Shown: positions 5,030 to 30,346 of the stretch, one piece after another
How positions within the stretch are numbered: the first letter of the stretch is position 1
Layout: each line of letters starts with the position of its first letter
Virus record (IMG/VR): IMGVR_UViG_2706794668_000011
Reading direction: 5' to 3' (one strand)
Length of the DNA: 64,000 nucleotides
Source of the DNA: a virus
Taxonomy: Duplodnaviria; Heunggongvirae; Uroviricota; Caudoviricetes
Program-made: the position numbers and the translations under genes
The notes under the pieces: generated by a model
What the model was told of the DNA's origin: nothing
Seen by the model: the letters and a program-made list of their open reading frames with translations, nothing else
Database searches by the model: none

Positions 5030-7345
5030 ATGATAAGCATCGTAAAACGTAACGGCCAAACAGAGCCGTTATCCGAAGAAAAATACAACCGCGTCGTAAT
5101 GTATGGCGTAGAAGGCATTCGTGGTGTAAGCGCATCCGCTGTAGCAATGGGAGCTGCGGCCAGCATTTTTGATGGGATGACCACCAGCCAGTTGCATGAG
5201 GCTTTGGTTAAATCTGCCGCTGATTTGATCTCACCAGAAGCACCAAATTACTCACAGGTGGCTGCCCGCCTGAACATTTTTAAAATCCGCAAAGATGCCT
5301 TCGGTCGTTACGACTATCCGAACTTCTACCAACACATTGTCAAGAACGTTAACAAGGGCGTTTATGACAAGGATTTGCTGACACATTATTCGTTTGAAGA
5401 GATCGAAGAACTCGGTAATTACATTAAGCCGAAACGTGACGATCTTTTTGGCTATGCAGCTACGGTGCAGTTGCAAAGCAAATACCTCGTTCAAAACCGT
5501 GTTACTGGTGAGATTCATGAGGGGCCGCAACATATCTATATGCTGGTAGGCATGTGTCTGTTCCAGAATTGGGAAGACGACTGCGCTGGCAAAACACGTA
5601 TGGAGATGGTCAAAGGTTTCTATGACGTTACAAGTACGTTCAAACTGTCTCTGCCCACACCAATCATGGCCGGCGTCCGTACTCCAACCCGTCAGTTCTC
5701 CAGTTGTGTGCTGATTGAGTCTGGCGATAGTCTGAAAGGGATTAGTGCAGCTTCAGCCGCAATTATCGACTACGTTTCACGTCGTGCTGGAATTGGTATT
5801 GGTTTTGGCCGTATCCGTGCGCTGGGCAGCGAGATCCGCAATGGTGAAGCCACCCATACCGGAGTTATTCCATTCCTGAAGCATTTCCAGACGGCTGTTA
5901 AATCTTGTTCGCAAGGTGGTGTTCGTGGTGGCGCAGCAACAGCGTTTTACCCGATCTGGCATCTTGAAGTTGAAAGTCTGCTGGTGGTGAAAAATAACCG
6001 TGGTATTGATGAAAACCGCGTTCGCCATCTTGATTACGGCGTCATGAGTAACCGTCTAATGTACCGTCGACTCGTCAGAAGCGAGAACATCACTCTGTTC
6101 AGCCCGCATGATGTGCCTGATATGTACGAAGCCTTCTTCACAGACCAGGAGCTGTTTGAAAAGCTGTACCATAAATACGAAGCCGATGATTCAATTCGCA
6201 AGAAGTCAGTACCTGCCATTGAGCTGTTCTCATCTCTGATGCAGGAACGAGCGTCCACGGGCCGAATTTATATTGCGAACGTCGATCATATTAATGAGCA
6301 TGGCGCTTTCATTCCTGCTCTTGCACCTGTCCGCCAGTCAAACCTGTGTATGGAGATCACCCTACCTACCCGTCCACTGGCATTTACCGACGACCCGAAC
6401 GGTGAGATCGCGCTATGCACTTTATCCGCTTTTAACCTCGGAGCCATCCGTTCACTGGAGTCTCTTAAAGAGGTGGCGTTCTATGCCGTTGCTGCACTGG
6501 ATTCGTTACTGGATTATCAAGACTATCCGATGGAGGCAGCCGAAGTGCCTGCCAAAGCTCGTCGTAGCCTGGGGATCGGTGTAACCAACTTTGCTTATTA
6601 CCTGGCAAAGAATGGCATTCGTTATTCTGATACCGCTGGTAATAAACTGGTGCATGAAACGTTCGAAGCTATCCAGTATTACCTTCTTGATGCCAGCTGC
6701 CAACTTGCTGAAGCAAAAGGTGAGTGTGACTGGTTTGAGCAGACCAAGTACGCAATTGGTCAGTTGCCGATCGACCATTACCGTTCTTCATTAGACGAAA
6801 GTGGCGAAACCAACTTTGAGTTAAAGATGCCGTGGGAAGAACTGCGTGAACGTATTGCAAAATACGGTCTTCGCAACTCCACACTGACGGCACAAATGCC
6901 ATGCGAGACTTCCAGCCAGATCACTAATTCCACAAACGGCATCGAACCGCCTCGTGGACCGGTGTCGGTGAAATCTTCTAAGGACGGCATCGTTAAGATG
7001 GTCGTGCCTGAGATTGAAAAACTGAAGGAACAGTATGAATACCTGTGGGATATGCCGGACAACCGCGGCTATCTGACAAAGGTGGCGATCATCCAGAAGT
7101 TCTTTGACCAGGCTATTTCGGCCAATACCAACTATGACCCTTCTCGCTTTGAAGGCGATAAAGTCCCAATGATGACGCTACTGTCAGATTTGCTTCTCGC
7201 CTACAAGATGGGAGTTAAAACGCTTTACTACCACAACACCAGAGATGGGGCAGGAAAGCGTGATGACGACGAACCGCAGAATCCACTGACGCAAGCTGTA
7301 GCCGTCGAGCCAGAAGATGAGTGCGACGGAGCCTGCAAAATCTGA
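5030..7345 (+). CDS. nrdA: ribonucleoside-diphosphate reductase large subunit (class Ia)
   Basis: 771 aa; collinear with E. coli NrdA as remembered, including active-site region SCVLIE and C-terminal CxxxxC tail (CDGACKI). Confidence 0.95.
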   Translation: MISIVKRNGQTEPLSEEKYNRVVMYGVEGIRGVSASAVAMGAAASIFDGMTTSQLHEALVKSAADLISPEAPNYSQVAARLNIFKIRKDAFGRYDYPNFYQHIVKNVNKGVYDKDLLTHYSFEEIEELGNYIKPKRDDLFGYAATVQLQSKYLVQNRVTGEIHEGPQHIYMLVGMCLFQNWEDDCAGKTRMEMVKGFYDVTSTFKLSLPTPIMAGVRTPTRQFSSCVLIESGDSLKGISAASAAIIDYVSRRAGIGIGFGRIRALGSEIRNGEATHTGVIPFLKHFQTAVKSCSQGGVRGGAATAFYPIWHLEVESLLVVKNNRGIDENRVRHLDYGVMSNRLMYRRLVRSENITLFSPHDVPDMYEAFFTDQELFEKLYHKYEADDSIRKKSVPAIELFSSLMQERASTGRIYIANVDHINEHGAFIPALAPVRQSNLCMEITLPTRPLAFTDDPNGEIALCTLSAFNLGAIRSLESLKEVAFYAVAALDSLLDYQDYPMEAAEVPAKARRSLGIGVTNFAYYLAKNGIRYSDTAGNKLVHETFEAIQYYLLDASCQLAEAKGECDWFEQTKYAIGQLPIDHYRSSLDESGETNFELKMPWEELRERIAKYGLRNSTLTAQMPCETSSQITNSTNGIEPPRGPVSVKSSKDGIVKMVVPEIEKLKEQYEYLWDMPDNRGYLTKVAIIQKFFDQAISANTNYDPSRFEGDKVPMMTLLSDLLLAYKMGVKTLYYHNTRDGAGKRDDDEPQNPLTQAVAVEPEDECDGACKI

Positions 7346-7404
7346 CATATGGTGGGGTGTATCCCCACCTTCTCTTTGATTTGTAAGCCTTGTTTAAACA
7401 AATA

Positions 7405-7424
7405 GGATAACAACTTGTTTAAAC
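7405..7424. promoter_or_regulatory. motif A copy (ggataacaacttgtttaaac) upstream of nrdB
   Basis: AACAA-N-TTGTT dyad 27 nt upstream of nrdB ATG; adjacent palindrome ttgtttaaacaa at 7391-7402. Confidence 0.55.
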
Positions 7425-7450
7425 ACATCAAAAAGCAAAAGGAAAAACAC

Positions 7451-8592
7451 ATGTCATATTCAACGTTCCGTTTGGGTGCTAATGATGCAACCAAAGAGCC
7501 TATGTTCCTCGGACAATNNNNNNNNNNNNNNNNNNNNNNNNNNNNNNNNNNNNNNNNNNNNNNNNNNNNNNNNNNNNNNNNNNNNNNNNNNNNNNNNNNN
7601 NNNNNNNNNNNNNNNNNNNNNNNNNNNNNNNNNNNNNNNNNNNNNNNNNNNNNNNNNNNNNNNNNNNNNNNNNNNNNNNNNNNNNNNNNNNNNNNNNNNN
7701 NNNNNNNNNNNNNNNNNNNNNNNNNNNNNNNNNNNNNNNNNNNNNNNNNNNNNNNNNNNNNNNNNNNNNNNCGTGGGTTGAAACATGGTCTTTCTCTGAG
7801 ACTATCCATAGCCGCAGCTACACCCACATTATTCGTGGCATGGTGGACGATCCGAGCATTGTTTTTGACGGTATTGTTACGGATGAAGAAATCATCAACC
7901 GAGCGATCAGTATCTCTGCTGAATATGACAGGCTTTATGGGATGACCTGCGAGCGCCAGTCGTTAGGCGAGAAGGAATTTGAGCGTCTGTACGTAAATGA
8001 ATATGGCTGGGAGCCATATCCTTTGCACCGTCAGCTTTTCCGCACGTTGGTGTCCATTAATGCGCTTGAGGCGATCCGTTTCTATGTAAGTTTTGCATGT
8101 ACGTTTGCCTTTGGCGAACGGAAGTTGCTTGAGGGTAACACCAAAATTATGCGCTTTATTGCCCGTGATGAAGCTCTGCATTGCGAAGGAACTGAACGCA
8201 TGATCCGCTTCATGCGTACCGGTCGCGAAGGTTTATTGTGGAAAGAGATTGCTGCTGATGAAGAAAACGTCATTTACGACACCATGAAATCAGTCGCCGA
8301 ACAAGAAATGAACTGGGCCGAGTATCTCTTCAAAGACGGTTCGATGATTGGTTTAAACGCGGATATTTTGAAGACCTATGTAAAATACCGCACCAATCTG
8401 GCTATGAATCGTCTTGGCCTGAAGGCTTTATTTCCAGAGGTTACCACCGATCCGCTGGTCTGGATGAACAAGTGGTTGTTAACCGACACACTGCAAATTG
8501 CACCACAAGAGGCAGAGCAAAGCACATATCTGGTAGGTCAGATCGATTCTACCGTGGACAAGGCTTCTCTAAGCCAGTTTGCAGACCTGTGA
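7451..8592 (+). CDS. nrdB: ribonucleoside-diphosphate reductase small subunit, interrupted by an assembly gap
   Basis: N-terminus MSYSTFRLGANDATKEPMFLGQ and post-gap region VETWSFSETIHSRSYTHII match E. coli NrdB as remembered; the two parts are out of frame across the N run, so the gap size is only approximate. Confidence 0.85.
7518..7771. other. assembly gap (254 N)
   Basis: run of N in the sequence. Confidence 0.99.
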
Positions 8593-8669
8593 ACCGATAC
8601 AAAGCATTATGTAACCTGGCAACGCTGGGCCACAATGGATCACAAGAATTAAGAAGGAACAAAACTAGC

Positions 8670-9539
8670 ATGAACTTTACCAAACTGACTGACCACCTGA
8701 AACTTGCCACCGATCGTCTCATTGGATTTAAGCCAGAACCATATGAGTTGCATGAAGGTCATGGTGTAGCTACTGAAAGTATTTACAAGATGGTCGATCA
8801 GTTTCATGAACTCTTCCAGCATCCGAGACGCGTTATGCCGACACCAGAGCTGCTTCGTCTCCGTGCAAGCCTGATTCATGAAGAAGCTGTAGTGGAAGGT
8901 ATTCCAGCTGCAATGAATGGGGATATTGAGCAACTGCTGGATGCAATGGCCGACTTTTTATACGTTGGTGTTGGTACGATGGTCGCCATCAAAGGTGGTA
9001 TTTCTACCGGCATGACCTATTACACGCAGGAACAGAGCATTGATCGCTTTATGCAGACAATTTTTGTGCCCGGTAACACTGTTTTCGATGATATGGCAAT
9101 GCCATTTCAGGAAGCTCGTGAGGCGTCATGTATGCTCGAAGAGCTGGCAGATAAACTTGAGAACAAGACTGTTAAGGATTCTGAGCTGATTCAGGAACTG
9201 CGCCGTGTCATGAACAAAATCTATGTGGCGTGCATGATGACCTATCGACTGGCTGATTTCCTCGGTATCAATGTAGTCGAGCTGGTTGGCGAAATTCATC
9301 GGTCTAACATGACAAAATTATGGCCTGCTGATGTAGAGGAACGTCGCCAGGCTGTGGCCAACTGCAAATACGACTCTTCAGACCTGGGATTTCGCCATGC
9401 TGATGGCACCGATAAGATGATCGGTTTTCGAATTTCCGATGGAAAGATTCTGAAGTCTCCAACCTATAGTGATGTCGATTTATCCTCCTTTGTTGAGCAA
9501 GCTAAAGCCTCAGCAATGTACGGAATGATCAAAAAATAA
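8670..9539 (+). CDS. putative all-alpha nucleotide pyrophosphohydrolase (MazG/dimeric-dUTPase-like)
   Basis: 290 aa from first ATG after nrdB with RBS aaggaa; acidic motif HEEAVVEG...DIEQLLDAMAD and later EIHRSNMTK resemble MazG-family metal-binding helices. Confidence 0.4.
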   Translation: MNFTKLTDHLKLATDRLIGFKPEPYELHEGHGVATESIYKMVDQFHELFQHPRRVMPTPELLRLRASLIHEEAVVEGIPAAMNGDIEQLLDAMADFLYVGVGTMVAIKGGISTGMTYYTQEQSIDRFMQTIFVPGNTVFDDMAMPFQEAREASCMLEELADKLENKTVKDSELIQELRRVMNKIYVACMMTYRLADFLGINVVELVGEIHRSNMTKLWPADVEERRQAVANCKYDSSDLGFRHADGTDKMIGFRISDGKILKSPTYSDVDLSSFVEQAKASAMYGMIKK

Positions 9540-9541
9540 TT

Positions 9542-9562
9542 GTAGGTGATTATCTACTAATG
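9542..9562. promoter_or_regulatory. motif B copy (gtaggtgattatctactaatg)
   Basis: Starts 3 nt after the upstream stop codon. Confidence 0.4.
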
Positions 9563-9606
9563 TATATTTGATTTGCGTATAAAACTCTGGAACGACTATT
9601 CTTTTT

Positions 9607-9630
9607 GGTGGCCTATGGCCACCATTTTTT
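9607..9630 (+). terminator. rho-independent terminator
   Basis: ggtggcc/ggccacc stem followed by atttttt. Confidence 0.8.
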
Positions 9631-9706
9631 ATCTATCTGGTCTTGTTTTATCAATGAATGTAAACTCACGTGATAAATAATTGATTACTTATCTTCGTGA
9701 GGTTTT

Positions 9707-10810
9707 ATGTCACTCCTTTTGAATCGTGAGCATACGAACGGTCAGGTAACAAACGCATCGTATGCAAAAGTTATTGAGACGGTGCTTAAAAGCGGCGTGC
9801 AGACTGATGATCGCACAGGCACTGGTACTTTAAGCACCTGCTACGTTCCCTCTTACTACATGCTTACTGGTGGGACTGTGCCGCTTATTTCTGGAAAGGC
9901 GGTAAATCTTAAGCCACTGCTTGTCGAACTTGAGTGGTATCTGAAAGGCACGGGCAACATCCAATTTCTTAAGGATAACGGCGTTAAGATTTGGGATGCA
10001 TGGGCCGATGAGAATGGCGATTTGGGGCCGGTTTACGGTAAGCAGTGGCGTCGATGGGAAGATACCCGCATCGTGAGCCATAGTGAATATCTGAGCAAGA
10101 TCGCTACTTTCCGTGAACGCGGGTACAAAGTCGAGGGATACCTGGGTATCAGTGAAGATCGCGTAGTGCTGTCCCGTGAAATCGATCAGCTACAGCGTAT
10201 TGTCGACACACTGCGCACGAACCCTACCGATCGTCGCATCATGCTTAACGCATGGAACGTAGGCGAGCTTGAGGATATGAAACTGCCACCTTGCCACTTT
10301 GTCTTCTCTTTGTGGAGTCGTGAGCTTGATTTTGAAACCCGTTTAACGATGGCAACTGACATTGGTCTTCAACACAGTCGCTTCGGTTATGAGTCTATCT
10401 ACACCAAGATGCTATACGATCTGGAGATGGACGGCAGTGTTACTGAAACTGAACTGGATGAACTTGGAATCCCCAAACGCATCCTCAACTCCTGCCTCGT
10501 ACAGCGTAGCGTAGACACTTTTGTTGGTATGCCATTCAATATTGCTGGCTATGGCATTCTCACTCATTTTCTCGCGAAGATTACGGGTCACATGGCCGGT
10601 GCATTTGTGCATTTTGGCTTTGACGTGCATTTGTACAACAACCACATGGAAGGTGTGTGTGAGCTAATGAAACGACAGGCTCCAGAGCATTCAGATCCGG
10701 TCGTTATTTTCCCTCATGAATGGTCTGAGCTGGATGATTTCAAATGGGACGATATTCTGATTCTTGGCTATGACCCTCTACCGTGGATCAAGGTTCCAGT
10801 GGCGGTGTGA
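9707..10810 (+). CDS. thyA: thymidylate synthase with two internal insertions
   Basis: 367 aa; DRTGTGT, ADENGDLGPVYGKQWR, AWNVGEL and catalytic LPPCH motifs shared with E. coli ThyA; ~40-aa and ~50-aa insertions relative to it. Confidence 0.9.
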   Translation: MSLLLNREHTNGQVTNASYAKVIETVLKSGVQTDDRTGTGTLSTCYVPSYYMLTGGTVPLISGKAVNLKPLLVELEWYLKGTGNIQFLKDNGVKIWDAWADENGDLGPVYGKQWRRWEDTRIVSHSEYLSKIATFRERGYKVEGYLGISEDRVVLSREIDQLQRIVDTLRTNPTDRRIMLNAWNVGELEDMKLPPCHFVFSLWSRELDFETRLTMATDIGLQHSRFGYESIYTKMLYDLEMDGSVTETELDELGIPKRILNSCLVQRSVDTFVGMPFNIAGYGILTHFLAKITGHMAGAFVHFGFDVHLYNNHMEGVCELMKRQAPEHSDPVVIFPHEWSELDDFKWDDILILGYDPLPWIKVPVAV

Positions 10811-10811
10811 T

Positions 10812-11225
10812 ATGGCAAGAGGTATGTATGTCTTATGCGAAATTGAAGGTGTGCTGGCAAATACCAGCCATCGTAAATCTGTACCTGACACGGATGCAGG
10901 CCAGCTCATTGCCGGTGATGAACTCATTTTCCCCACCAGCCGTATGTTGCGTGGTTTTGCTCGCTCAGGGGCTGAAGTGGTGCTTATCAGTAGCCGCTCT
11001 GAAACTCTTGAAGCGCCCACTAAACGATGGCTGAAAGATTTTGGCGTTGATTACGACTGGCTTCATCTCGTACCGAATGGCACCAGTTATGAGAAGCATA
11101 TTAAGCGCACATTAGCGGAGCATAAAGGCGATCTGCTTATCGCTGCGCTGGTGCACGATCCTCGACTCCGTGCCGCTTTAGCTGACTCTCATCATAGACC
11201 GGTCATCTATGAGGTGAGCAAATGA
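10812..11225 (+). CDS. hypothetical protein
   Basis: ATG directly after thyA stop; 3' end overlaps DHFR start; function not recognised. Confidence 0.45.
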   Translation: MARGMYVLCEIEGVLANTSHRKSVPDTDAGQLIAGDELIFPTSRMLRGFARSGAEVVLISSRSETLEAPTKRWLKDFGVDYDWLHLVPNGTSYEKHIKRTLAEHKGDLLIAALVHDPRLRAALADSHHRPVIYEVSK

Positions 11226-11698
11226 AGATGATAGCTGCTGTTGGCCGTAACTATGAGATCGGCATAGCGAACGAACTGCCCTGGCGTTGTTCTACCGATC
11301 TGAAGCTATTTAAGAGACTCACCAAAAACGCCACTGTCGTTATGGGGCGTAAAACGATGGAAAGTCTCAAACGCCCTCTTCCAGAGCGTCATAACCTCGT
11401 TTTGACGCGCTCTCATGGCTTTGTACCAAATGGATTCTACCCTGCTGGTGTGGATGATGTGTTGCGATTACCAGAGCCTGTGTGGGTGATTGGCGGGGAA
11501 CAAATTTACTCGCTATTCATGCCGCATGTTGAAGAGATTTGGCTCTCCCACATCGGCGTTGATGTGCCAAACGCCGATGCATTCTTCCCGGCAAGCATGA
11601 TGCGTAATTTAGGCTTTGTGCCTGTTGAAACAGTTTTTACCCAACGAGCCAGCGAGGAAGAGCCTGGCTTTTCGCAGATCGTATACAGAAGGTCGTAA
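11222..11698 (+). CDS. folA: dihydrofolate reductase
   Basis: 158 aa; pattern AAVGRNYEIG...LPW...VMGRKT...RPLPER...VIGG matches the DHFR fold and E. coli FolA. Confidence 0.9.
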   Translation: MKMIAAVGRNYEIGIANELPWRCSTDLKLFKRLTKNATVVMGRKTMESLKRPLPERHNLVLTRSHGFVPNGFYPAGVDDVLRLPEPVWVIGGEQIYSLFMPHVEEIWLSHIGVDVPNADAFFPASMMRNLGFVPVETVFTQRASEEEPGFSQIVYRRS

Positions 11699-12342
11699 TG
11701 GATTACCGGATTGGGATCACTGGTGCTCAGGGCAGTGGGAAAACAACCCTGGCAAAATATATCGACAAACATTACGGAATCCCTTACGTGGATGCTGGTG
11801 TCGGAAGTTTGATGAGCCGACTCGGTGTTCGAGTAGGTGAGTCTATGCCTCTATATGAGCGGCTTCAGATTCAAATGGAAATCGCAAAGCATATAGAGCT
11901 ACTTACGCGTGGTGTTGAAGGCTTTGTTATCGATCGCACACCTGCTGATGTTATGGCCTACACGTTGGATTTGGTCGGCCATACCAATGAAGATCGATGT
12001 ATTGAGTTAGCCCTCGATATCGAAAAGTTTTGCCACAAAACTGCTATTTCAAACTTTAACGCCATTGCTGGCCTACGCCCGGGAGTCGCTCTCTCAGAGC
12101 GAGATTACTTGCGATCACAACGAGCATCATTAGACCGTCTGTATGTCGCTCGTATTGATGCGTTGATGTGCGGGGAACTGACAAAAATTCACCTGCATCC
12201 GCAAAGGGGGGATCTGCAAACCTTCGTCGTTTCCAACCGATATCGCACGGTTGAAGCAAGAGCCAGATCAGTGATGAGAATGCTAGATAACGCTGTAGAA
12301 AAGATAGAAAACCGGTTCTGTGGTCGAGTGACCGTTCATTAG
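11698..12342 (+). CDS. P-loop nucleotide kinase-like protein (possible dNMP kinase)
   Basis: 214 aa; N-terminal Walker A GAQGSGKTT; context within the dNTP-synthesis module. Confidence 0.55.
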   Translation: MDYRIGITGAQGSGKTTLAKYIDKHYGIPYVDAGVGSLMSRLGVRVGESMPLYERLQIQMEIAKHIELLTRGVEGFVIDRTPADVMAYTLDLVGHTNEDRCIELALDIEKFCHKTAISNFNAIAGLRPGVALSERDYLRSQRASLDRLYVARIDALMCGELTKIHLHPQRGDLQTFVVSNRYRTVEARARSVMRMLDNAVEKIENRFCGRVTVH

Positions 12343-16135: not shown

Positions 16136-16729
16136 ATGACAACGAAGACACCAGCCCGACCGCAAGCAAAAACTCGCAAAAAAGACAAAAACAAAAATTC
16201 TCCCCGCACCAATCCCACAACGCCTGTCGTAGAGTTCAATCCCCAGCTTAAAACCGTGAAAATCTTTAGTGATGGCTCTTGCCTTAAAAATCCGGGTGGC
16301 CCGGGCGGTTACGGTATCGTTCTCCAGTATCGTGGCGAGGAACGCGAGTTCTCAGATGGTTTTCATAGCACCACCAATAACCGCATGGAGATGATGGGGG
16401 CACTTATCGGGCTGGAGCGTTTGAAATATCCATGCAACGTTATTTTGCACTCTGATAGCCAGTATCTGAAAAACGGCATGACACAGTGGATGAAATGGTG
16501 GAAACGCAATGGATGGATGACTTCTGACAAAAAACCGGTAAAGAATGTTGATCTGTGGAAGCGTCTGGATGAGGCCGCAAGTCGACATAATGTTCGCTGG
16601 AAGTGGGTTAAAGGTCACGCCGGGCATCGTGAAAATGAAATATGTGATCGACTCGCGAAGATCGCAGCTTTTTCAGCAGCAGATATGCCTCACAAGAAAG
16701 ATATTGGTTTTGTTTATAACAAACAGTAA
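16136..16729 (+). CDS. rnhA: ribonuclease H (RNase HI type) with basic N-terminal extension
   Basis: Core [18 protein letters not shown]...TNNRME...HSDSQY...KNVDLW...KGHAGH matches E. coli RNase HI; RBS ggag before ATG at 16136. Confidence 0.85.
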
Positions 16730-20012: not shown

Positions 20013-21698
20013 ATGAATACAGCCCTTTCCATCATGGGCGATGCCAGCTCAAACACTGCTATCGACTATCGACAGGAAATGAACGTCATCCACGAAATTG
20101 TGGCCGAGTGCGAGAAAGAGATCTCCTTCATGTATCAGGTACACGACTTCGTTTATGGCGATGAACGCCACAACATGATTAATCGCCTGCTTCGACTAAA
20201 CCACCGACCAGATGAAGATCGCTCACGTTTGAATCGAGTCTGGCTGGATAACGTCGATCTGGAATGGGTGAAACAGAATATTTGGGCCGAGTACTGGAGG
20301 AAGGTTACGGATATGACTAACGTTCTGCTGATCATGCCAGCTTCCCGTCGCGACGAGTGGCGTGAGCTATTTATCGAGGGCAAGCAGGAAGTCATCAAAA
20401 CTGACAGAACCGGCTATCAGATGAAGGTTAAAGAGTTCGTTGGTGTACCGGAGTTCAAAGCAGAAACGGTCATACCAACGATGCTTAATTTGCTGAATGA
20501 CAGGCACAAATATCTCTCTGAGCGCGTGTATGGCTTGTTTAAGGCGCTGAGTCCTGCGCACAAGACAAATAAGACAAACGGTTTCAGCGAGCGTCTGATA
20601 ATCGCTGACTGCATTTCTGATTTCTGGCGTGACAGCGTTAGCGTGAACTATCGCAAAGAGGACTACATCGACGATCTGCGTGTCTTGCTTCATTTCTTCG
20701 CGCACAAAGAATTTATTACCATCAACCGCACTGCTGAGGTGCTATCAGCTGCGTATCGGGCAAACGACTGCCAGACCGGTGACTGGATGAACGTCGATGG
20801 AAATCTGATGCGCGTGAAGATGTTCAAGAACGGCAACGTTCACTTTGAAATACATCCTGACGTGGCCTGGAAGTTGAATGAGGTGCTGGCTTACAGTATG
20901 CCTGCTGCAATCCCCGCGCCATGCCGAACTGCGCCAAAAACACGGGCACCAAAGCAGTTCGGGTTAATCCAGAAGACGATCTCCGTGCCGGTTCGCACTG
21001 CGCTTCGTGACGGGCGATTGAGCAAAGACAAAGGCGTATGGTACTTCTCTGATTCAGCTCTCCAGAAGTCGCAGGTGGAAGAGCTTGAGCGCACACTGAG
21101 CTTCATTGGCGGCGTGCAGGAGAAAAAGCACTGGCAGTTCCCGTATGAGATCGGCCATACGCTAAATACGATTGTGGCTACCGGTTTAATACCGGATACA
21201 AAATCACACCAGTTCTACCCTACCCCACGCTTGATTGCTGAGTACGTTGCCAGAGCCACTGAATTGAAGCCTGGTGAGAAGCTGTTGGAGCCTCAAGCCG
21301 GACGTGGGGATCTTCTGGCCTATATTAACGCCGATCTGGAAGATGTTACCTGCATAGAAATCGCACCTCTCTTCGCTGATATCCTGCGTGGAAAAGGGTA
21401 TACGAACACGATTTGCTGCGACTTCATAAAGTGGTCTGAGGACAACGCAGGTTATCAGTTCGACAAAATCGTTATGAACCCGCCGTACTCGCTTGGTCGT
21501 CATAGAGAGCACACGCTGGCTGCGCTGGGGCATCTGAAAGTCGGCGGGCGTCTTGTAGCAGTATTGCCGGGCACTGCGCCAATACTGGACTGGATGACGA
21601 TGGATAATTACGTTTATGCCAGAGGGAAGTCGTTTACCAACGAGTTTGAAGACACAGGGATCACAGTCAGCGTATACGTTTTCAAACGCGTTAAATGA
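20013..21698 (+). CDS. DNA methyltransferase (N6-adenine or N4-cytosine type) with large N-terminal domain of unknown function
   Basis: 561 aa; C-terminal FYPTP, SAM-binding EPQAGRGDLL and catalytic MNPPYS motifs. Confidence 0.7.
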   Translation: MNTALSIMGDASSNTAIDYRQEMNVIHEIVAECEKEISFMYQVHDFVYGDERHNMINRLLRLNHRPDEDRSRLNRVWLDNVDLEWVKQNIWAEYWRKVTDMTNVLLIMPASRRDEWRELFIEGKQEVIKTDRTGYQMKVKEFVGVPEFKAETVIPTMLNLLNDRHKYLSERVYGLFKALSPAHKTNKTNGFSERLIIADCISDFWRDSVSVNYRKEDYIDDLRVLLHFFAHKEFITINRTAEVLSAAYRANDCQTGDWMNVDGNLMRVKMFKNGNVHFEIHPDVAWKLNEVLAYSMPAAIPAPCRTAPKTRAPKQFGLIQKTISVPVRTALRDGRLSKDKGVWYFSDSALQKSQVEELERTLSFIGGVQEKKHWQFPYEIGHTLNTIVATGLIPDTKSHQFYPTPRLIAEYVARATELKPGEKLLEPQAGRGDLLAYINADLEDVTCIEIAPLFADILRGKGYTNTICCDFIKWSEDNAGYQFDKIVMNPPYSLGRHREHTLAALGHLKVGGRLVAVLPGTAPILDWMTMDNYVYARGKSFTNEFEDTGITVSVYVFKRVK

Positions 21699-21759: not shown

Positions 21760-22065
21760 ATGAACAACCTCCAGTTAGAGCATTTTAACGTCACAGGCCA
21801 TTCTGATTTTCCTTTCAAGTTTACATTGAAAGGTTATGCAGAGGATGCGGTAGGCCAGATCATTATTGATAAAGGCATCGTTAAGTTTGAGGGGGATTTT
21901 GATGAATCCGCGAAAACATTCATAGACTTCATTGCCAAACGTTGGAGCGAGCAATGGAAAGACCTGGAAAAGCGCGCTAATGAGTTTGATCGGTTCATGG
22001 ATACAATGGATACAGCAAAAGAGGCTCTAGTTGCCAGACCACGGCCCGTATTTGTTCCGAATTGA
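21760..22065 (+). CDS. hypothetical protein
   Basis: 101-aa ORF. Confidence 0.5.
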   Translation: MNNLQLEHFNVTGHSDFPFKFTLKGYAEDAVGQIIIDKGIVKFEGDFDESAKTFIDFIAKRWSEQWKDLEKRANEFDRFMDTMDTAKEALVARPRPVFVPN

Positions 22066-23052: not shown

Positions 23053-23089
23053 GCATCCCTTCTCCATTAAGGCCACTAGTTGTGGCCTT

Positions 23090-23112
23090 AAACAATTTGT
23101 TTTCTACCTTTT
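23090..23112. promoter_or_regulatory. motif A copy in reverse orientation (aaacaatttgttttctacctttt); left copy of a 23-bp direct repeat
   Basis: Identical 23-mer at 27028-27050. Confidence 0.6.
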
Positions 23113-23188
23113 CTTGTTCGAGAAAATAACGTTCCTTTGTCTGGTGCTATGTACCGATCAGTTGCACTGAGTGAGCTTCTTTCATGTA

Positions 23189-23208
23189 TACTGTGTAAAT
23201 GAACAGTA
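23189..23208. promoter_or_regulatory. LexA (SOS) box
   Basis: tactgtgtaaatgaacagta fits CTGT-N8-ACAG exactly; overlaps a plausible sigma70 promoter (ttgcac ... tgtata) 17 nt upstream of the UmuD'-like gene. Confidence 0.65.
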
Positions 23209-23224
23209 TTGAGGGCAAAACGCT

Positions 23225-23614
23225 ATGGGCTTCCCTTCTCCTGCGGCGGATTATGCTGAGAGCCGTATTTCTCTTGATCAGCAGATAATTAGACATCCTT
23301 CAGCGACCTACTTCATGAGAGCAGCTGATAGTCATCATCGTGAGGGAATATTACAGGGTGCATTGCTGGTGGTTGATTCCTCACTTACCCCGGTTGATGG
23401 TTCTCTGCTTGTATGCGCTCTGGATGGGGAATATCGCGTAAAAAGATACCGGAAGTCTCCACGTCAGCATCTGGAGGATTTAAGAACCGGTAAGAAGGAA
23501 GCATTGCCAAAGGATGACGATGGATGCACGGGCAGCAATGCCGTGTTTGGTGTGATCACTCACATTATCAACGACGCAAGAAGTGGCGAGTTTGATGATT
23601 GTCCTGTGATGTAG
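23225..23614 (+). CDS. UmuD'-like protein (pre-truncated UmuD homologue, HumD type)
   Basis: 129 aa beginning MGFPSPAADY, i.e. at the position of the UmuD Cys24-Gly25 self-cleavage site; shares HPSATYF and VFGVI motifs with UmuD; Ser/Lys dyad positions appear retained. Confidence 0.75.
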   Translation: MGFPSPAADYAESRISLDQQIIRHPSATYFMRAADSHHREGILQGALLVVDSSLTPVDGSLLVCALDGEYRVKRYRKSPRQHLEDLRTGKKEALPKDDDGCTGSNAVFGVITHIINDARSGEFDDCPVM

Positions 23615-23625
23615 GAGAACTGATT

Positions 23626-23651
23626 AGGCGGTGCAATGCACCGCCTTTTTA
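23626..23651 (+). terminator. rho-independent terminator
   Basis: aggcggtg/caccgcct hairpin followed by ttttt; lies 1 nt beyond the apbC stop on the other strand. Confidence 0.65.
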
Positions 23652-24752
23652 TCACACTGCGCGGAATGCGATTTCGCCAGGTATTACTTCACCTTGCCAA
23701 TACATTTGGGCAGCAACGCGATCTGCGAGGTCACGATAAATAGCCGTAAATTCGCTATCTGGACGACTAATAACGGTTGGTGTTCCGTTATCCAGATCTT
23801 CACGAAGAGAGATATGAAGTGGCATTTGGCCTAACAACTGCGTGTTGTATTTCTCGGCCAGTTTCTGTGCTCCACCGGTGCCAAAAATTGGCTCGTGATG
23901 ACCGCAGTTACTGCAAATATGCACACTCATGTTTTCAACGATACCCAGTACCGGCACTTCGACTTTTTCGAACATCACAATGCCTTTCTTCGCATCGATC
24001 AGCGCGATGTCTTGCGGCGTAGTTACCACAACCGCACCAGTTACAGGAATGTTCTGCGCCAGCGTCAATTGAATATCACCAGTGCCCGGTGGCATATCGA
24101 GAACGAGATAGTCCAGATCAGGCCACAGTGTTTCCTGCAACATCTGCATCAGCGCCTTGCTCGCCATCGGTCCACGCCACACCATTGCATTGTCATCGGT
24201 GACCAGATAACCAATAGAGTTGGTTGCCAGGCCATGAGACATGATAGGTGCCATGTGAGTACCGTCCGGTGAGGTTGGACGTTGGTTTTCCGCGCCCAGC
24301 ATGGTTGGAATTGATGGACCATAGATATCGGCATCCAAAATACCAACTTTCGCACCTTCAGCAGCCAAAGCCAGTGCCAAGTTTACTGCTGTGGAGGATT
24401 TACCCACGCCGCCCTTGCCTGAGCTGACGGCGATAATGTTCTTAACGCCATTAATGCCTGGTTGGTTTTTGACGCGCTTAAGCGTGGCAATGTTGTACGA
24501 CAGCTTCCAGTCAATAGCCTTTGCGCCAGTGATACGGAGCAGATCACCACTACATTGCTCTTTCAGGTCTTCAAAAGGCTTATTCCACACGAAAGGCATG
24601 ATTAGTTCGACATGCAGTGTGTCATCCATCAACGCAACATGGTGTAACGCTTTAAGCGTAGTCAAGTTGTGTTTCAGGGTTGGGTGCTGAAAATTAGCCA
24701 GCGTACCGGCTACCATTGCTCTCAGGGCATCCGGCGATTTGGACTCGCTCAT
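23652..24752 (-). CDS. apbC: Fe-S cluster carrier ATPase ApbC/Mrp, host-type
   Basis: 366 aa; very close match over the full length to enterobacterial Mrp as I remember it, including the deviant Walker A SGKGGVGKS and the CxxC motif. Confidence 0.9.
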   Translation of the reverse strand: MSESKSPDALRAMVAGTLANFQHPTLKHNLTTLKALHHVALMDDTLHVELIMPFVWNKPFEDLKEQCSGDLLRITGAKAIDWKLSYNIATLKRVKNQPGINGVKNIIAVSSGKGGVGKSSTAVNLALALAAEGAKVGILDADIYGPSIPTMLGAENQRPTSPDGTHMAPIMSHGLATNSIGYLVTDDNAMVWRGPMASKALMQMLQETLWPDLDYLVLDMPPGTGDIQLTLAQNIPVTGAVVVTTPQDIALIDAKKGIVMFEKVEVPVLGIVENMSVHICSNCGHHEPIFGTGGAQKLAEKYNTQLLGQMPLHISLREDLDNGTPTVISRPDSEFTAIYRDLADRVAAQMYWQGEVIPGEIAFRAV

Positions 24753-24909
24753 CCCGTCTCCTTTATTTTAATTTGCGCAATTGTCGCCTTGTAGTGTACT
24801 CCAGCTACGACATTTAATCATTTATGAGAAATGCTGTTATCACATGGCAGACATAAGGCCATTTTGTTACTATCAAGCCCCTTTTCACTACAAAGAAGTA
24901 ATGCCTACT

Positions 24910-26943
24910 ATGACCCAAGTCGCGAAGAAAATTCTGGTGACGTGCGCGCTGCCGTACGCTAACGGCTCAATCCACCTCGGCCATATGCTGGAGCACATCC
25001 AGGCTGATGTCTGGGTTCGTTACCAGCGAATGCGCGGCCACGAGGTTAATTTCATCTGTGCCGACGATGCCCACGGTACGCCAATCATGCTGAAAGCACA
25101 GCAGCTTGGTATCACACCGGAACAGATGATTGGCGAAATGAGTCAGGAACATCAGACTGATTTCGCAGGCTTTAACATCAGCTATGACAACTATCACTCG
25201 ACGCACAGCGAAGAGAACCGTCAGTTGTCCGAGCTTATCTACTCTCGCCTGAAAGAAAACGGTTTTATTAAAAACCGCACCATCTCACAGCTGTACGATC
25301 CGGAAAAATGCATGTTCCTGCCGGACCGTTTTGTAAAAGGCACCTGCCCGAAATGTAAATCCCCGGATCAATACGGCGATAACTGCGAAGTCTGCGGCGC
25401 GACCTACAGCCCGACTGAATTGATCGAGCCGAAATCGGTGGTTTCTGGCGCTACGCCGGTAATGCGTGATTCTGAACACTTCTTCTTTGATCTGCCCTCT
25501 TTCAGCGAAATGTTGCAGGCATGGACCCGCAGCGGTGCGTTGCAGGAGCAGGTGGCAAATAAAATGCAGGAGTGGTTTGAATCTGGCCTGCAACAGTGGG
25601 ATATCTCCCGCGACGCCCCTTACTTCGGTTTTGAAATTCCGAACGCGCCGGGCAAATATTTCTACGTCTGGCTGGACGCGCCGATTGGCTACATGGGTTC
25701 TTTCAAGAATCTGTGCGACAAGCGCGGCGACAGCGTAAGCTTCGACGAATACTGGAAGAAAGACTCCACCGCCGAGCTGTACCACTTCATCGGCAAAGAT
25801 ATCGTTTACTTCCACAGTCTGTTCTGGCCTGCCATGCTGGAAGGCAGCAACTTCCGCAAGCCGACCAACCTGTTTGTTCACGGCTATGTGACGGTGAACG
25901 GCGCGAAGATGTCCAAGTCTCGCGGCACCTTTATTAAAGCCAGCACCTGGCTGAATCATTTTGACGCTGACAGCCTGCGTTACTACTACACTGCGAAACT
26001 CTCTTCGCGCATTGATGATATCGATCTCAACCTGGAAGATTTCGTTCAGCGCGTGAATGCCGATATCGTGAACAAAGTGGTTAACCTGGCCTCCCGTAAT
26101 GCAGGCTTTATCAACAAGCGTTTTGACGGCGTGCTGACAAGCGAACTGGCTGACCCGCAACTGTACAAAACCTTTACTGATGCCGCTGAAGTGATTGGCG
26201 AAGCATGGGAAAGCCGCGAATTTGGTAAAGCTATCCGTGAAATCATGGCATTGGCTGACCTGGCTAATCGCTATGTCGATGAACAGGCTCCGTGGGTGGT
26301 GGCGAAGCAGGAAGGTCGCGATGCAGATCTGCAGGCGATTTGCTCTATGGGCATTAACCTGTTCCGCGTGCTGATGACGTACCTGAAACCGGTACTGCCG
26401 AAACTGACTGAACGTGCAGAAGCATTCCTGAATACAGAACTGACCTGGGATGGTATCCAGCAACCGCTTCTGGGCCATAAAGTGAATCCGTTCAAGGCAC
26501 TGTATAACCGTATCGATATGAAACAGGTGGAAGCACTGGTGGAAGCATCCAAAGAAGAAGTGAAAGCCACAGCTGCACCGGTAACTGGCCCACTGGCTGA
26601 CGAACCGATTCAGGAAACCATCACCTTTGACGACTTCGCCAAAGTTGACCTGCGTGTGGCGCTGATTGAAAACGCGGAGTTTGTCGAAGGTTCTGACAAA
26701 CTGCTTCGCCTGACGCTGGATCTCGGTGGTGAAAAGCGTAATGTCTTCTCAGGCATCCGTTCCGCTTATCCAGATCCACAGGCACTGATTGGTCGTCACA
26801 CCATTATGGTGGCTAACCTGGCACCACGTAAAATGCGCTTCGGTATCTCTGAAGGCATGGTGATGGCTGCCGGTCCTGGCGGGAAAGATATCTTCCTGTT
26901 AAGCCCGGATGCTGGTGCTAAACCTGGCCACCAGGTTAAGTAA
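24910..26943 (+). CDS. metG: methionyl-tRNA synthetase, host-type
   Basis: 677 aa from [10 protein letters not shown]; HLGH and KMSKS motifs, zinc knuckle CPKCK...CEVCG, C-terminal tRNA-binding domain; near-identical to E. coli MetG as remembered. The track ORF starting at 24781 is an upstream in-frame extension. Confidence 0.95.
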
Positions 26944-26963
26944 TTAAACAACCTCTCTTCGCA

Positions 26964-30034: not shown

Positions 30035-30346
30035 ATGAAAAAATCATTGGTTCTTGGTCTGGACAAAGACCAGAAGAGAAAAGAGAAGCCTGCACTGGTT
30101 GCTCAATTAACTTTGCTGGACATCGTTGCCAATGGAACCTCTATTCGTCTGTTCCGTGAAACAGCGGTGTCTTTCGATAAAAACACCTTTACTCGTTATG
30201 TAATGAATGTTCGTCGCCAGCGTGGAAAAGGCTGGATGGCATTTCAAAGAATGTGGCCGGAACATCAGCTCGAACTGGCTTTGATGGAAGTTAACCGCGT
30301 GGCCCAGCAAGAGATTCAGAGAGCATCAGTGATGGCAATAGCCTGA
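30035..30346 (+). CDS. hypothetical protein
   Basis: 103 aa from ATG preceded by ggag. Confidence 0.5.
   Translation: MKKSLVLGLDKDQKRKEKPALVAQLTLLDIVANGTSIRLFRETAVSFDKNTFTRYVMNVRRQRGKGWMAFQRMWPEHQLELALMEVNRVAQQEIQRASVMAIA

Follow-up and report, generated by a model that had tools for sequence, protein, structure and literature searches.

The stretch of DNA analysed here (64,000 nucleotides; hereafter the window) carries a self-contained humD cassette, with promoter, LexA operator, ribosome-binding site, gene and terminator, under predicted SOS control, whose product would serve host UmuC as a ready-made UmuD′, a reading to which we assign a probability of roughly 0.8. The gene is a catalogued humD orthologue with a known LexA operator, found here on an SSU5-like phage-plasmid, and it holds little new biology, as a curated NCBIfam model exists, the orthologue of phage P1 was characterised in 1999 and the P1 LexA site is annotated. 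P1 HumD has been described as an already-activated short form of UmuD (PMC7092418), and humD as a LexA-regulated SOS gene (PMC9603915). Experiments on the window copy were not found in the accessible literature, and at 91% identity it is reasonable to expect, by analogy, that it acts like P1 HumD.

The humD coding sequence occupies 23225-23614 on the plus strand, with the ATG at 23225 and the stop codon at 23612-23614, and encodes a pre-truncated UmuD′ homologue of 129 amino acids (aa). An in-frame TGA at 23210-23212 is located 12 nucleotides (nt) 5′ of the ATG and therefore a longer N-terminus is impossible; in the list of open reading frames (ORFs), the humD start is the first start codon after this TGA. 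A longer, mis-called ORF was thus ruled out. The same TGA overlaps a Shine-Dalgarno sequence, GAGGG at 23211-23215, which is a good ribosome-binding site for humD. We compared the locus with 80 related viral loci, defined as those in IMG/VR whose encoded protein shares at least 91% identity with window HumD, and a usable start further upstream was absent in 78 of them. A few HumD-family protein clusters are 148-167 aa long, which suggests that upstream starts were mis-called in these entries.

On the 3′ side, the stop codon of the convergent apbC gene (23652-24752, minus strand) is located 37 nt past the humD stop, in agreement with the claim of the first-pass annotation that the gene abuts an apbC-metG block. 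An intrinsic terminator with a 9-bp GC-rich stem, a 3-nt loop and TTTTT is predicted on the plus strand at 23626-23651, between the two stop codons, and it lies outside both the homology to the chromosomal apbC-metG locus (from 23656) and the homology to P1 (to 23613). On the 5′ side, a hairpin at 23067-23091 (plus strand) follows the upstream toprim-domain gene. It has a 10-pair stem including 5 GC pairs and is terminator-like with a poor T-run, belongs to the backbone sequence and is not common to P1, and it probably shields humD from upstream transcription. Scans for tRNA genes, Rfam families and tandem repeats were all empty.

The window protein was assigned by profile, sequence and structure comparison. 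NCBIfam model NF051876 ("HumD family translesion DNA polymerase", an equivalog) scored 218.7 bits against a cutoff of 120 and aligned end to end, covering residues 1-129 of 129, and Pfam PF00717 (Peptidase_S24) scored 38.1 bits against a gathering score of 23.3. The UmuD subfamily model NF007621 remained below its threshold (87.8 bits, cutoff 110). By tblastn against phage genomes, the amino acid identity was 90.7-92% to HumD of P1 and P1-like phages (P1, RCS47, SJ46 and D6), 71% to phiKO2 gp23 and 69% to N15 gp26. A single database cluster that is 98% identical to the protein holds 1081 member sequences, and public databases already label it and its relatives as "HumD family translesion DNA polymerase".

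The identity to residues 25-139 of Escherichia coli K-12 UmuD was 42-44%, and the alignment starts at UmuD residue 25. Gly2 of the window protein is aligned with Gly25 of UmuD, the first residue of UmuD′, and its counterpart in 1UMU, a crystal chain of UmuD′, is residue 1. Accordingly, the 24-residue N-terminal arm of UmuD, with its Cys24-Gly25 cleavage site, is absent from the window protein. The first-pass annotation had described a 129-aa ORF beginning at the UmuD′ cleavage point and a pre-truncated UmuD′ analogue like P1 HumD; the position of Gly2 together with the in-frame stop bears out the former, and the full-length match to NF051876 together with the identity to the P1-family proteins bears out the latter. 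The alignments that it had proposed gave 90.7% for P1 HumD, 42-44% for UmuD and 38-48% for the plasmid homologues of the MucA/ImpA type.

It had also named a LexA or CI-type repressor fragment as the result that would speak against a UmuD′ homologue. The LexA model TIGR00498 reached 27.9 bits against a cutoff of 110.95, with a match to the C-domain alone, and all 129 aa of the window protein are taken up by the S24 domain, so that a DNA-binding domain is absent. In an AlphaFold2 model built with 48 family sequences, the core (residues 25-119) was moderately confident and the termini were of low confidence. The best Foldseek matches of this model were four UmuD or UmuD′ entries (1umu, 1ay9, 8gmt and 1i4v), ahead of the C-domains of LexA and lambda cI. 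A fragment of LexA or of the lambda cI repressor was rejected on these grounds. In the protein clusters P0017-P0019, P0038, P0054 and P0055, some HumD-family proteins of 129 aa are named 'LexA family transcriptional regulator' while having no DNA-binding domain, which is likely a naming error.

E. coli UmuD/UmuD′ (1UMU, 1AY9, 1I4V and 8GMT) shares with the window protein the S24 fold, the positions of the Ser/Lys dyad and a LexA-regulated gene. It differs in having the 24-residue arm, which needs RecA*-assisted self-cleavage, in being co-transcribed with umuC and in ending without the 10-residue tail described below. The 'umuD' genes of conjugative plasmids and integrative and conjugative elements (MucA, ImpA, SamA and RumA types) also encode S24 accessory subunits on mobile elements and are SOS-linked. 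Unlike window humD, they are annotated as autoproteolytic and lie in operons with a umuC-type gene; their products are 38-48% identical to the window protein, and the alignments end at around residue 119, before the tail.

S36 and K73 of the window protein are the equivalents of UmuD Ser60 and Lys97. The residues of a putative S24 catalytic dyad are found at both positions. We examined the two columns in 54 unique pre-truncated family members from GTDB genomes (loci L088-L166). The Ser column was occupied by Ser in 12 and by Thr in 24 of the 54, with other residues in the rest, and the Lys column by Lys in 29 and by Arg in 16. N15 and phiKO2 are among the members in which the catalytic Ser is replaced with Thr, as it is in many others, whereas the window protein and P1 HumD both retain Ser and Lys. 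A non-conserved dyad is expected if self-cleavage is dispensable because nothing is left to cleave, and the pattern of residues suggests that selection on the self-cleavage chemistry is relaxed in the pre-truncated family.

The UmuD′ model leaves one conserved feature of the wider pre-truncated family unexplained, namely its C-terminal tail. All HumD-type proteins have an extension of 10 residues past the C-terminus of UmuD, of the form ...R-SGEFDDCPV[MIL], and in the window protein this family-specific acidic tail, SGEFDDCPVM, makes up residues 120-129 (GEFDDCPVM, residues 121-129, is encoded at 23585-23611 on the plus strand). In relatives as distant as roughly 45% identity, conservation of the tail is about equal to that of the core; EFDDIPVI and GEFDDTPF are among its variants, and UmuD and the plasmid UmuD homologues lack it. 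Its pLDDT was below 50 in the AlphaFold2 model, and the tail is probably flexible if the model is followed. The C-terminal tip of E. coli single-stranded DNA-binding protein (SSB; MG1655 ssb) is DFDDDIPF, and the HumD tail EFDDCPVM resembles it. The tail differs from the SSB tip in that the terminal residue is Met, Ile or Leu, not the critical Phe, and Pro is shifted by one position. From this likeness, the tail, written as [DE]-F-D-D-x-P-hydrophobic-hydrophobic-COOH, might be a docking peptide that mimics the SSB tip, which would make HumD more than a pre-cleaved UmuD′; we regard this idea as speculative and quite improbable. If it were true, the tail would engage the pockets of SSB partners (for example the chi subunit, RecQ, ExoI and PriA) or SSB-coated gaps, and HumD could deliver host UmuC to stalled forks or rival the SSB clients during SOS. 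A search of the literature for a link between UmuD-like proteins and an SSB-like tail found none.

We next describe the upstream signals. A predicted LexA operator (SOS box) of 20 bases, the palindromic TACTGTGTAAATGAACAGTA, is located at 23189-23208, leaving a gap of 16 nt before the humD ATG; the box of the E. coli umuDC operon, for comparison, is TACTGTATATAAAAACAGTA. The box claimed by the first-pass annotation, CTGT-N8-ACAG at 23189-23208, is therefore present, and the full box is unique in the window: TACTGT-N8-ACAGTA, the palindromic core with 12 specified bases, was found a single time in the 64 kb, and none of 100 dinucleotide shuffles contained it. The looser pattern CTGT-N8-ACAG occurred twice in 64 kb against 0.83 expected, and since this count is near chance, significance is confined to the full box. 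The second occurrence of the loose pattern, CTGTTCCGTGAAACAG at 30149, was rejected as a LexA site: its spacer is GC-rich, the closest annotated plasmid record has a coding sequence at this place, and the count is consistent with the expectation of 0.83. Another candidate, TACGGTATCGTTCTCCAGTA at 16310, was attributed to chance, as it mismatches at two positions, including one within the left CTG core, and 2 sequences at this mismatch level were found against 1.66 expected.

The operator is conserved together with the gene. In the P1 record AF234173, a LexA binding site located 19 nt before humD is described as lying "in the regulatory region of lxr and humD", and when the window box was aligned onto this P1 box, TACTGTATAAATGAACAGTA, one base was different in the DNA alignment. 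A CTG-N10-CAG box was found 16-19 nt before the ATG in 80 of the 80 related viral loci. Among these loci, the arms TACTGT and ACAGTA are essentially fixed and the 8-base spacer is found in about 15 versions, which is the pattern expected of selection on LexA half-sites. A box about 20 nt upstream is mostly kept even in distant genomic relatives, which share 45-73% identity and come from many genera of Enterobacterales. From these sequence comparisons, we infer that LexA probably controls humD of the window. In phiKO2 (L004 2181-2500), one annotated LexA site lies between the gene of HumD-type gp23 and the divergent gene of DinI-like gp22, and this operator thereby pairs two proteins that interact with RecA or the SOS system. 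Like the P1 site, the phiKO2 site is homologous to the operator of the window.

The candidate promoter, of the sigma-70 type, is weak and is the least secure part of the description of the locus. A standard promoter scan, with spacers of 16-18 nt, found no plus-strand promoter upstream of humD. We therefore searched with relaxed spacers of 15-19 nt and used conservation across contexts as additional information. The best candidate was TTGCAC-19-TATACT, which matches at 8 of 12 positions: the −35-like hexamer TTGCAC at 23162-23167 has 3 of 6 matches, and the −10 hexamer TATACT at 23187-23192 has 5 of 6 and extends four bases into the LexA box. The −10 hexamer was missed by the standard scan because the spacer is longer than 18 nt. 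Nearly all members of a set of 39 unique upstream sequences, which represent about five unrelated contexts, retain it, and TTGCAC or TTTCAC is found at unchanged spacing in P1-like and two other contexts. The similarity between the upstream contexts starts at the −35-like hexamer, which thus marks the left edge of the conserved humD cassette. The earlier proposal that the box overlaps a plausible promoter can be kept in part, as the conserved −10 does overlap the box, but the promoter itself is weak, with its 19-nt spacer and 8 of 12 matches, and is not seen by the standard scan. Because the −10 overlaps the box, bound LexA would occlude it. The further proposal of the first-pass annotation, expression solely during the SOS response, remains an inference.

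Comparison with P1 defined the extent of the cassette. P1 HumD (AAQ14181; AF234173) and the window protein are both 129 aa long and 90.7% identical, start alike with M-GFPSPAADY and share the SGEFDDCPV tail; the P1 gene has a LexA box in the matching place, has no umuC partner and is likewise carried by a phage-plasmid. The gap between box and ATG is 19 nt in P1 and 16 nt in the window. The surroundings differ: P1 humD is flanked by the divergent lxr on one side and the phd-doc addiction module on the other, and window humD is located between the toprim-domain gene and the convergent apbC-metG on an SSU5-like backbone. In blastn against the window, only 23178-23613 of the locus aligned with P1, at 85% identity. 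N15 gp26, phiKO2 gp23 and the wider NF051876 family of Enterobacterales prophages share the pre-truncated start, the EFDDCPV tail and the solo gene, as a rule together with a LexA box some 20 nt before the gene, and differ from the window protein in their identity of 69-73%. The 80 viral loci were split into a group in the apbC context, mostly at least 96% identical, and a group in the phd context, about 92% identical. In PLSDB, humD copies were found in 124 plasmids at at least 99% identity, in 53 at 95-99% and in 424 at 90-95%, compared with 38-48% identity to window HumD for the canonical plasmid umuD genes, and identical HumD proteins have already been deposited from more than 100 plasmids. 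The cassette of promoter, operator and gene moves among P1-like, SSU5-like and N15-like phage-plasmids and prophages. Its spread over elements of the P1, SSU5 and N15 types indicates repeated selection on temperate elements that depend on host UmuC.

The gene looks like a truncated umuD without a partner, and truncated fragments of the family do exist in Stx phages and some lambdoid phages, so that humD could be regarded as a functionless umuD remnant that has lost its 5′ end and its umuC. Between window and P1 humD, however, dN/dS was 0.06 with dS of 0.77 (Nei-Gojobori), and the two proteins differ by 12 substitutions, mostly conservative. The gene is under strong purifying selection, and the dN/dS value excludes a decaying remnant. 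Moreover, hundreds of plasmids and more than 500 protein clusters have an intact ORF, its start is conserved to the exact position, the gene has its own ribosome-binding site and operator, and the P1 orthologue was shown to be functional. By the selection and conservation data, the remnant explanation is effectively refuted, and we leave it only a negligible probability. As a separate observation, the HumD-type gene of Stx-converting and some lambdoid phages is reduced to C-terminal fragments (residues 45-128 or 73-128), often unannotated, which are apparent remnants at prophage ends.

A umuC partner, the absence of which from the neighbourhood had been stated in the first-pass annotation, was found nowhere on the element. 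In tblastn with E. coli UmuC, the 64-kb window gave no match at E ≤ 10, and the 45 kb of plasmid pMHMC-002 outside the window gave only noise, with a best E of 2.1. The annotation of the sister plasmid NZ_CP045933.1 includes no Y-family polymerase. Within 3 kb on either side of the 80 related viral humD loci, the number of UmuC matches was 0, and 2 of 79 genomic HumD-type loci had one beside them. On the host side, umuC was found in 5423 of 5426 complete E. coli genomes, and being near-universal in E. coli, this partner is normally on hand.

The working of the cassette as a supplier of ready-made UmuD′ can be outlined as follows. As long as the DNA is undamaged, LexA of the host would occupy the box over the −10 and keep humD from being transcribed. 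Upon DNA damage, RecA*-stimulated cleavage of LexA would free the promoter, and HumD would be made starting where UmuD is cut, skipping the slow RecA-mediated processing step. HumD dimers could then form a polymerase V-like translesion enzyme with UmuC, SOS-induced from the host chromosome, and RecA filaments. Such activity would appear earlier in the SOS response than through the host UmuD pathway, and the damaged replicon would be copied more readily, at the cost of mutations. The P1 protein is reported to behave as this outline predicts: in the work of McLenigan et al. in 1999, P1 HumD reportedly complements UmuD′, forms a stable dimer and binds UmuC and, in vitro, RecA filaments. It is also said to be poorly expressed and to complement well only from a high-copy vector, and for this reason its natural contribution to mutagenesis may be small.

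The binding to RecA filaments, together with the solitary gene, may be read differently, with HumD being mainly a modulator of RecA filaments and SOS that is independent of UmuC, binds RecA* and perhaps host UmuD/UmuD′, and tunes recombination, the duration of SOS or prophage induction. HumD-type genes are essentially always solo, and in phiKO2 the LexA box additionally drives, in the opposite direction, a gene whose product resembles the known RecA modulator DinI. The reported in vitro binding of P1 HumD to RecA filaments and the solved structure of UmuD on a RecA filament (8gmt) fit this explanation as well, and the conserved extra tail suggests an additional partner. Against these points, P1 HumD reportedly complemented UmuD′ in mutagenesis and bound UmuC in the same 1999 work, the UmuD′-like core is strongly conserved and UmuC is nearly always supplied by the hosts, and we consider a mainly UmuC-independent role unlikely.

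The gene content of the plasmids raises another candidate partner. The closest complete plasmids encode dnaE, primase, a DnaB-like helicase, ligase and exonucleases; UmuD and UmuD′ contact Pol III subunits, as is known from the work of Sutton and Walker; and P1 humD adjoins hot, which encodes a homologue of Pol III theta. HumD might thus work not with host UmuC but with the element's own replication machinery, for example plasmid DnaE (Pol III alpha), where it would serve as a checkpoint for damage or modulate processivity. The cassette, however, is also found in P1, N15, phiKO2 and lambdoid prophages, in none of which dnaE is near humD, and on the plasmid the two genes are about 45 kb apart with nothing specific linking them. 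This makes such a role highly improbable, and supply of ready-made UmuD′ to host UmuC is retained as the preferred reading.

The replicon of the window is a non-mobilizable phage-plasmid of the SSU5/pHCM2 type, of about 108-110 kb, from Shigella sonnei and E. coli. At both of its ends, the window matches S. sonnei pMHMC-002 (NZ_CP053753.1), the closest complete plasmid, with 100% identity, and plasmids from S. sonnei and from E. coli O104:H4 are nearly identical to it. The genes of the replicon include terminase, portal, capsid and tail genes, ParB-type partition genes, RepB, nrdAB, thymidylate synthase, dihydrofolate reductase (DHFR), dnaE, primase and helicase. Beyond apbC, metG is divergent from it and ends at 26943 on the plus strand. 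Compared with its chromosomal counterpart in E. coli, which was found in 5426 of 5426 genomes, the apbC-metG block (23656-26944) shows an identity of just about 90.5%, and the block is therefore no recent capture from E. coli itself. In the literature, phage-plasmid-borne metG in S. sonnei is tied to antimicrobial survival (Tam et al. 2024, cited in PMC12452169). The apbC-metG block is the more topical feature of the element and is already being studied. Because this type of phage-plasmid circulates in clinical S. sonnei and E. coli and carries the metG copy, an SOS-inducible, ready activator of Pol V beside metG could raise damage tolerance and mutability under fluoroquinolone exposure.

Several further features of the window were observed in the comparison with sister plasmids. 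At positions 1-912 and 881-1498, the window starts within a copy of IS2, for which many E. coli genomes contain transposase sequence at 100% identity; this IS2 splits the metallophosphoesterase (SbcD-like) gene of the plasmid, and most sister plasmids match only from position 913 on. At 22024-22035, about 1.2 kb upstream of humD, approximately 4.9 kb are missing relative to NZ_CP045933.1, corresponding to about a dozen small genes that include an ead/Ea22-like gene and those of a ClpX-type zinc finger protein and a DUF551 protein. The alignments flanking this gap overlap by 12 bases, which suggests a deletion of about 4.9 kb between short direct repeats. The product of an ORF of 561 aa at 20013-21698 contains a DUF4942 domain and is methyltransferase-like at its C-terminus; the PLSDB gene table of NZ_CP045933.1 has a gap here, but sister plasmids annotate the ORF as a DUF4942 protein. 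At about 6958-11700, a nucleotide-metabolism cluster consists of nrdA, nrdB, thymidylate synthase and dihydrofolate reductase genes, and novel trimethoprim-resistance dfrA genes on phage-plasmids were reported in 2025 (PMC12217456).
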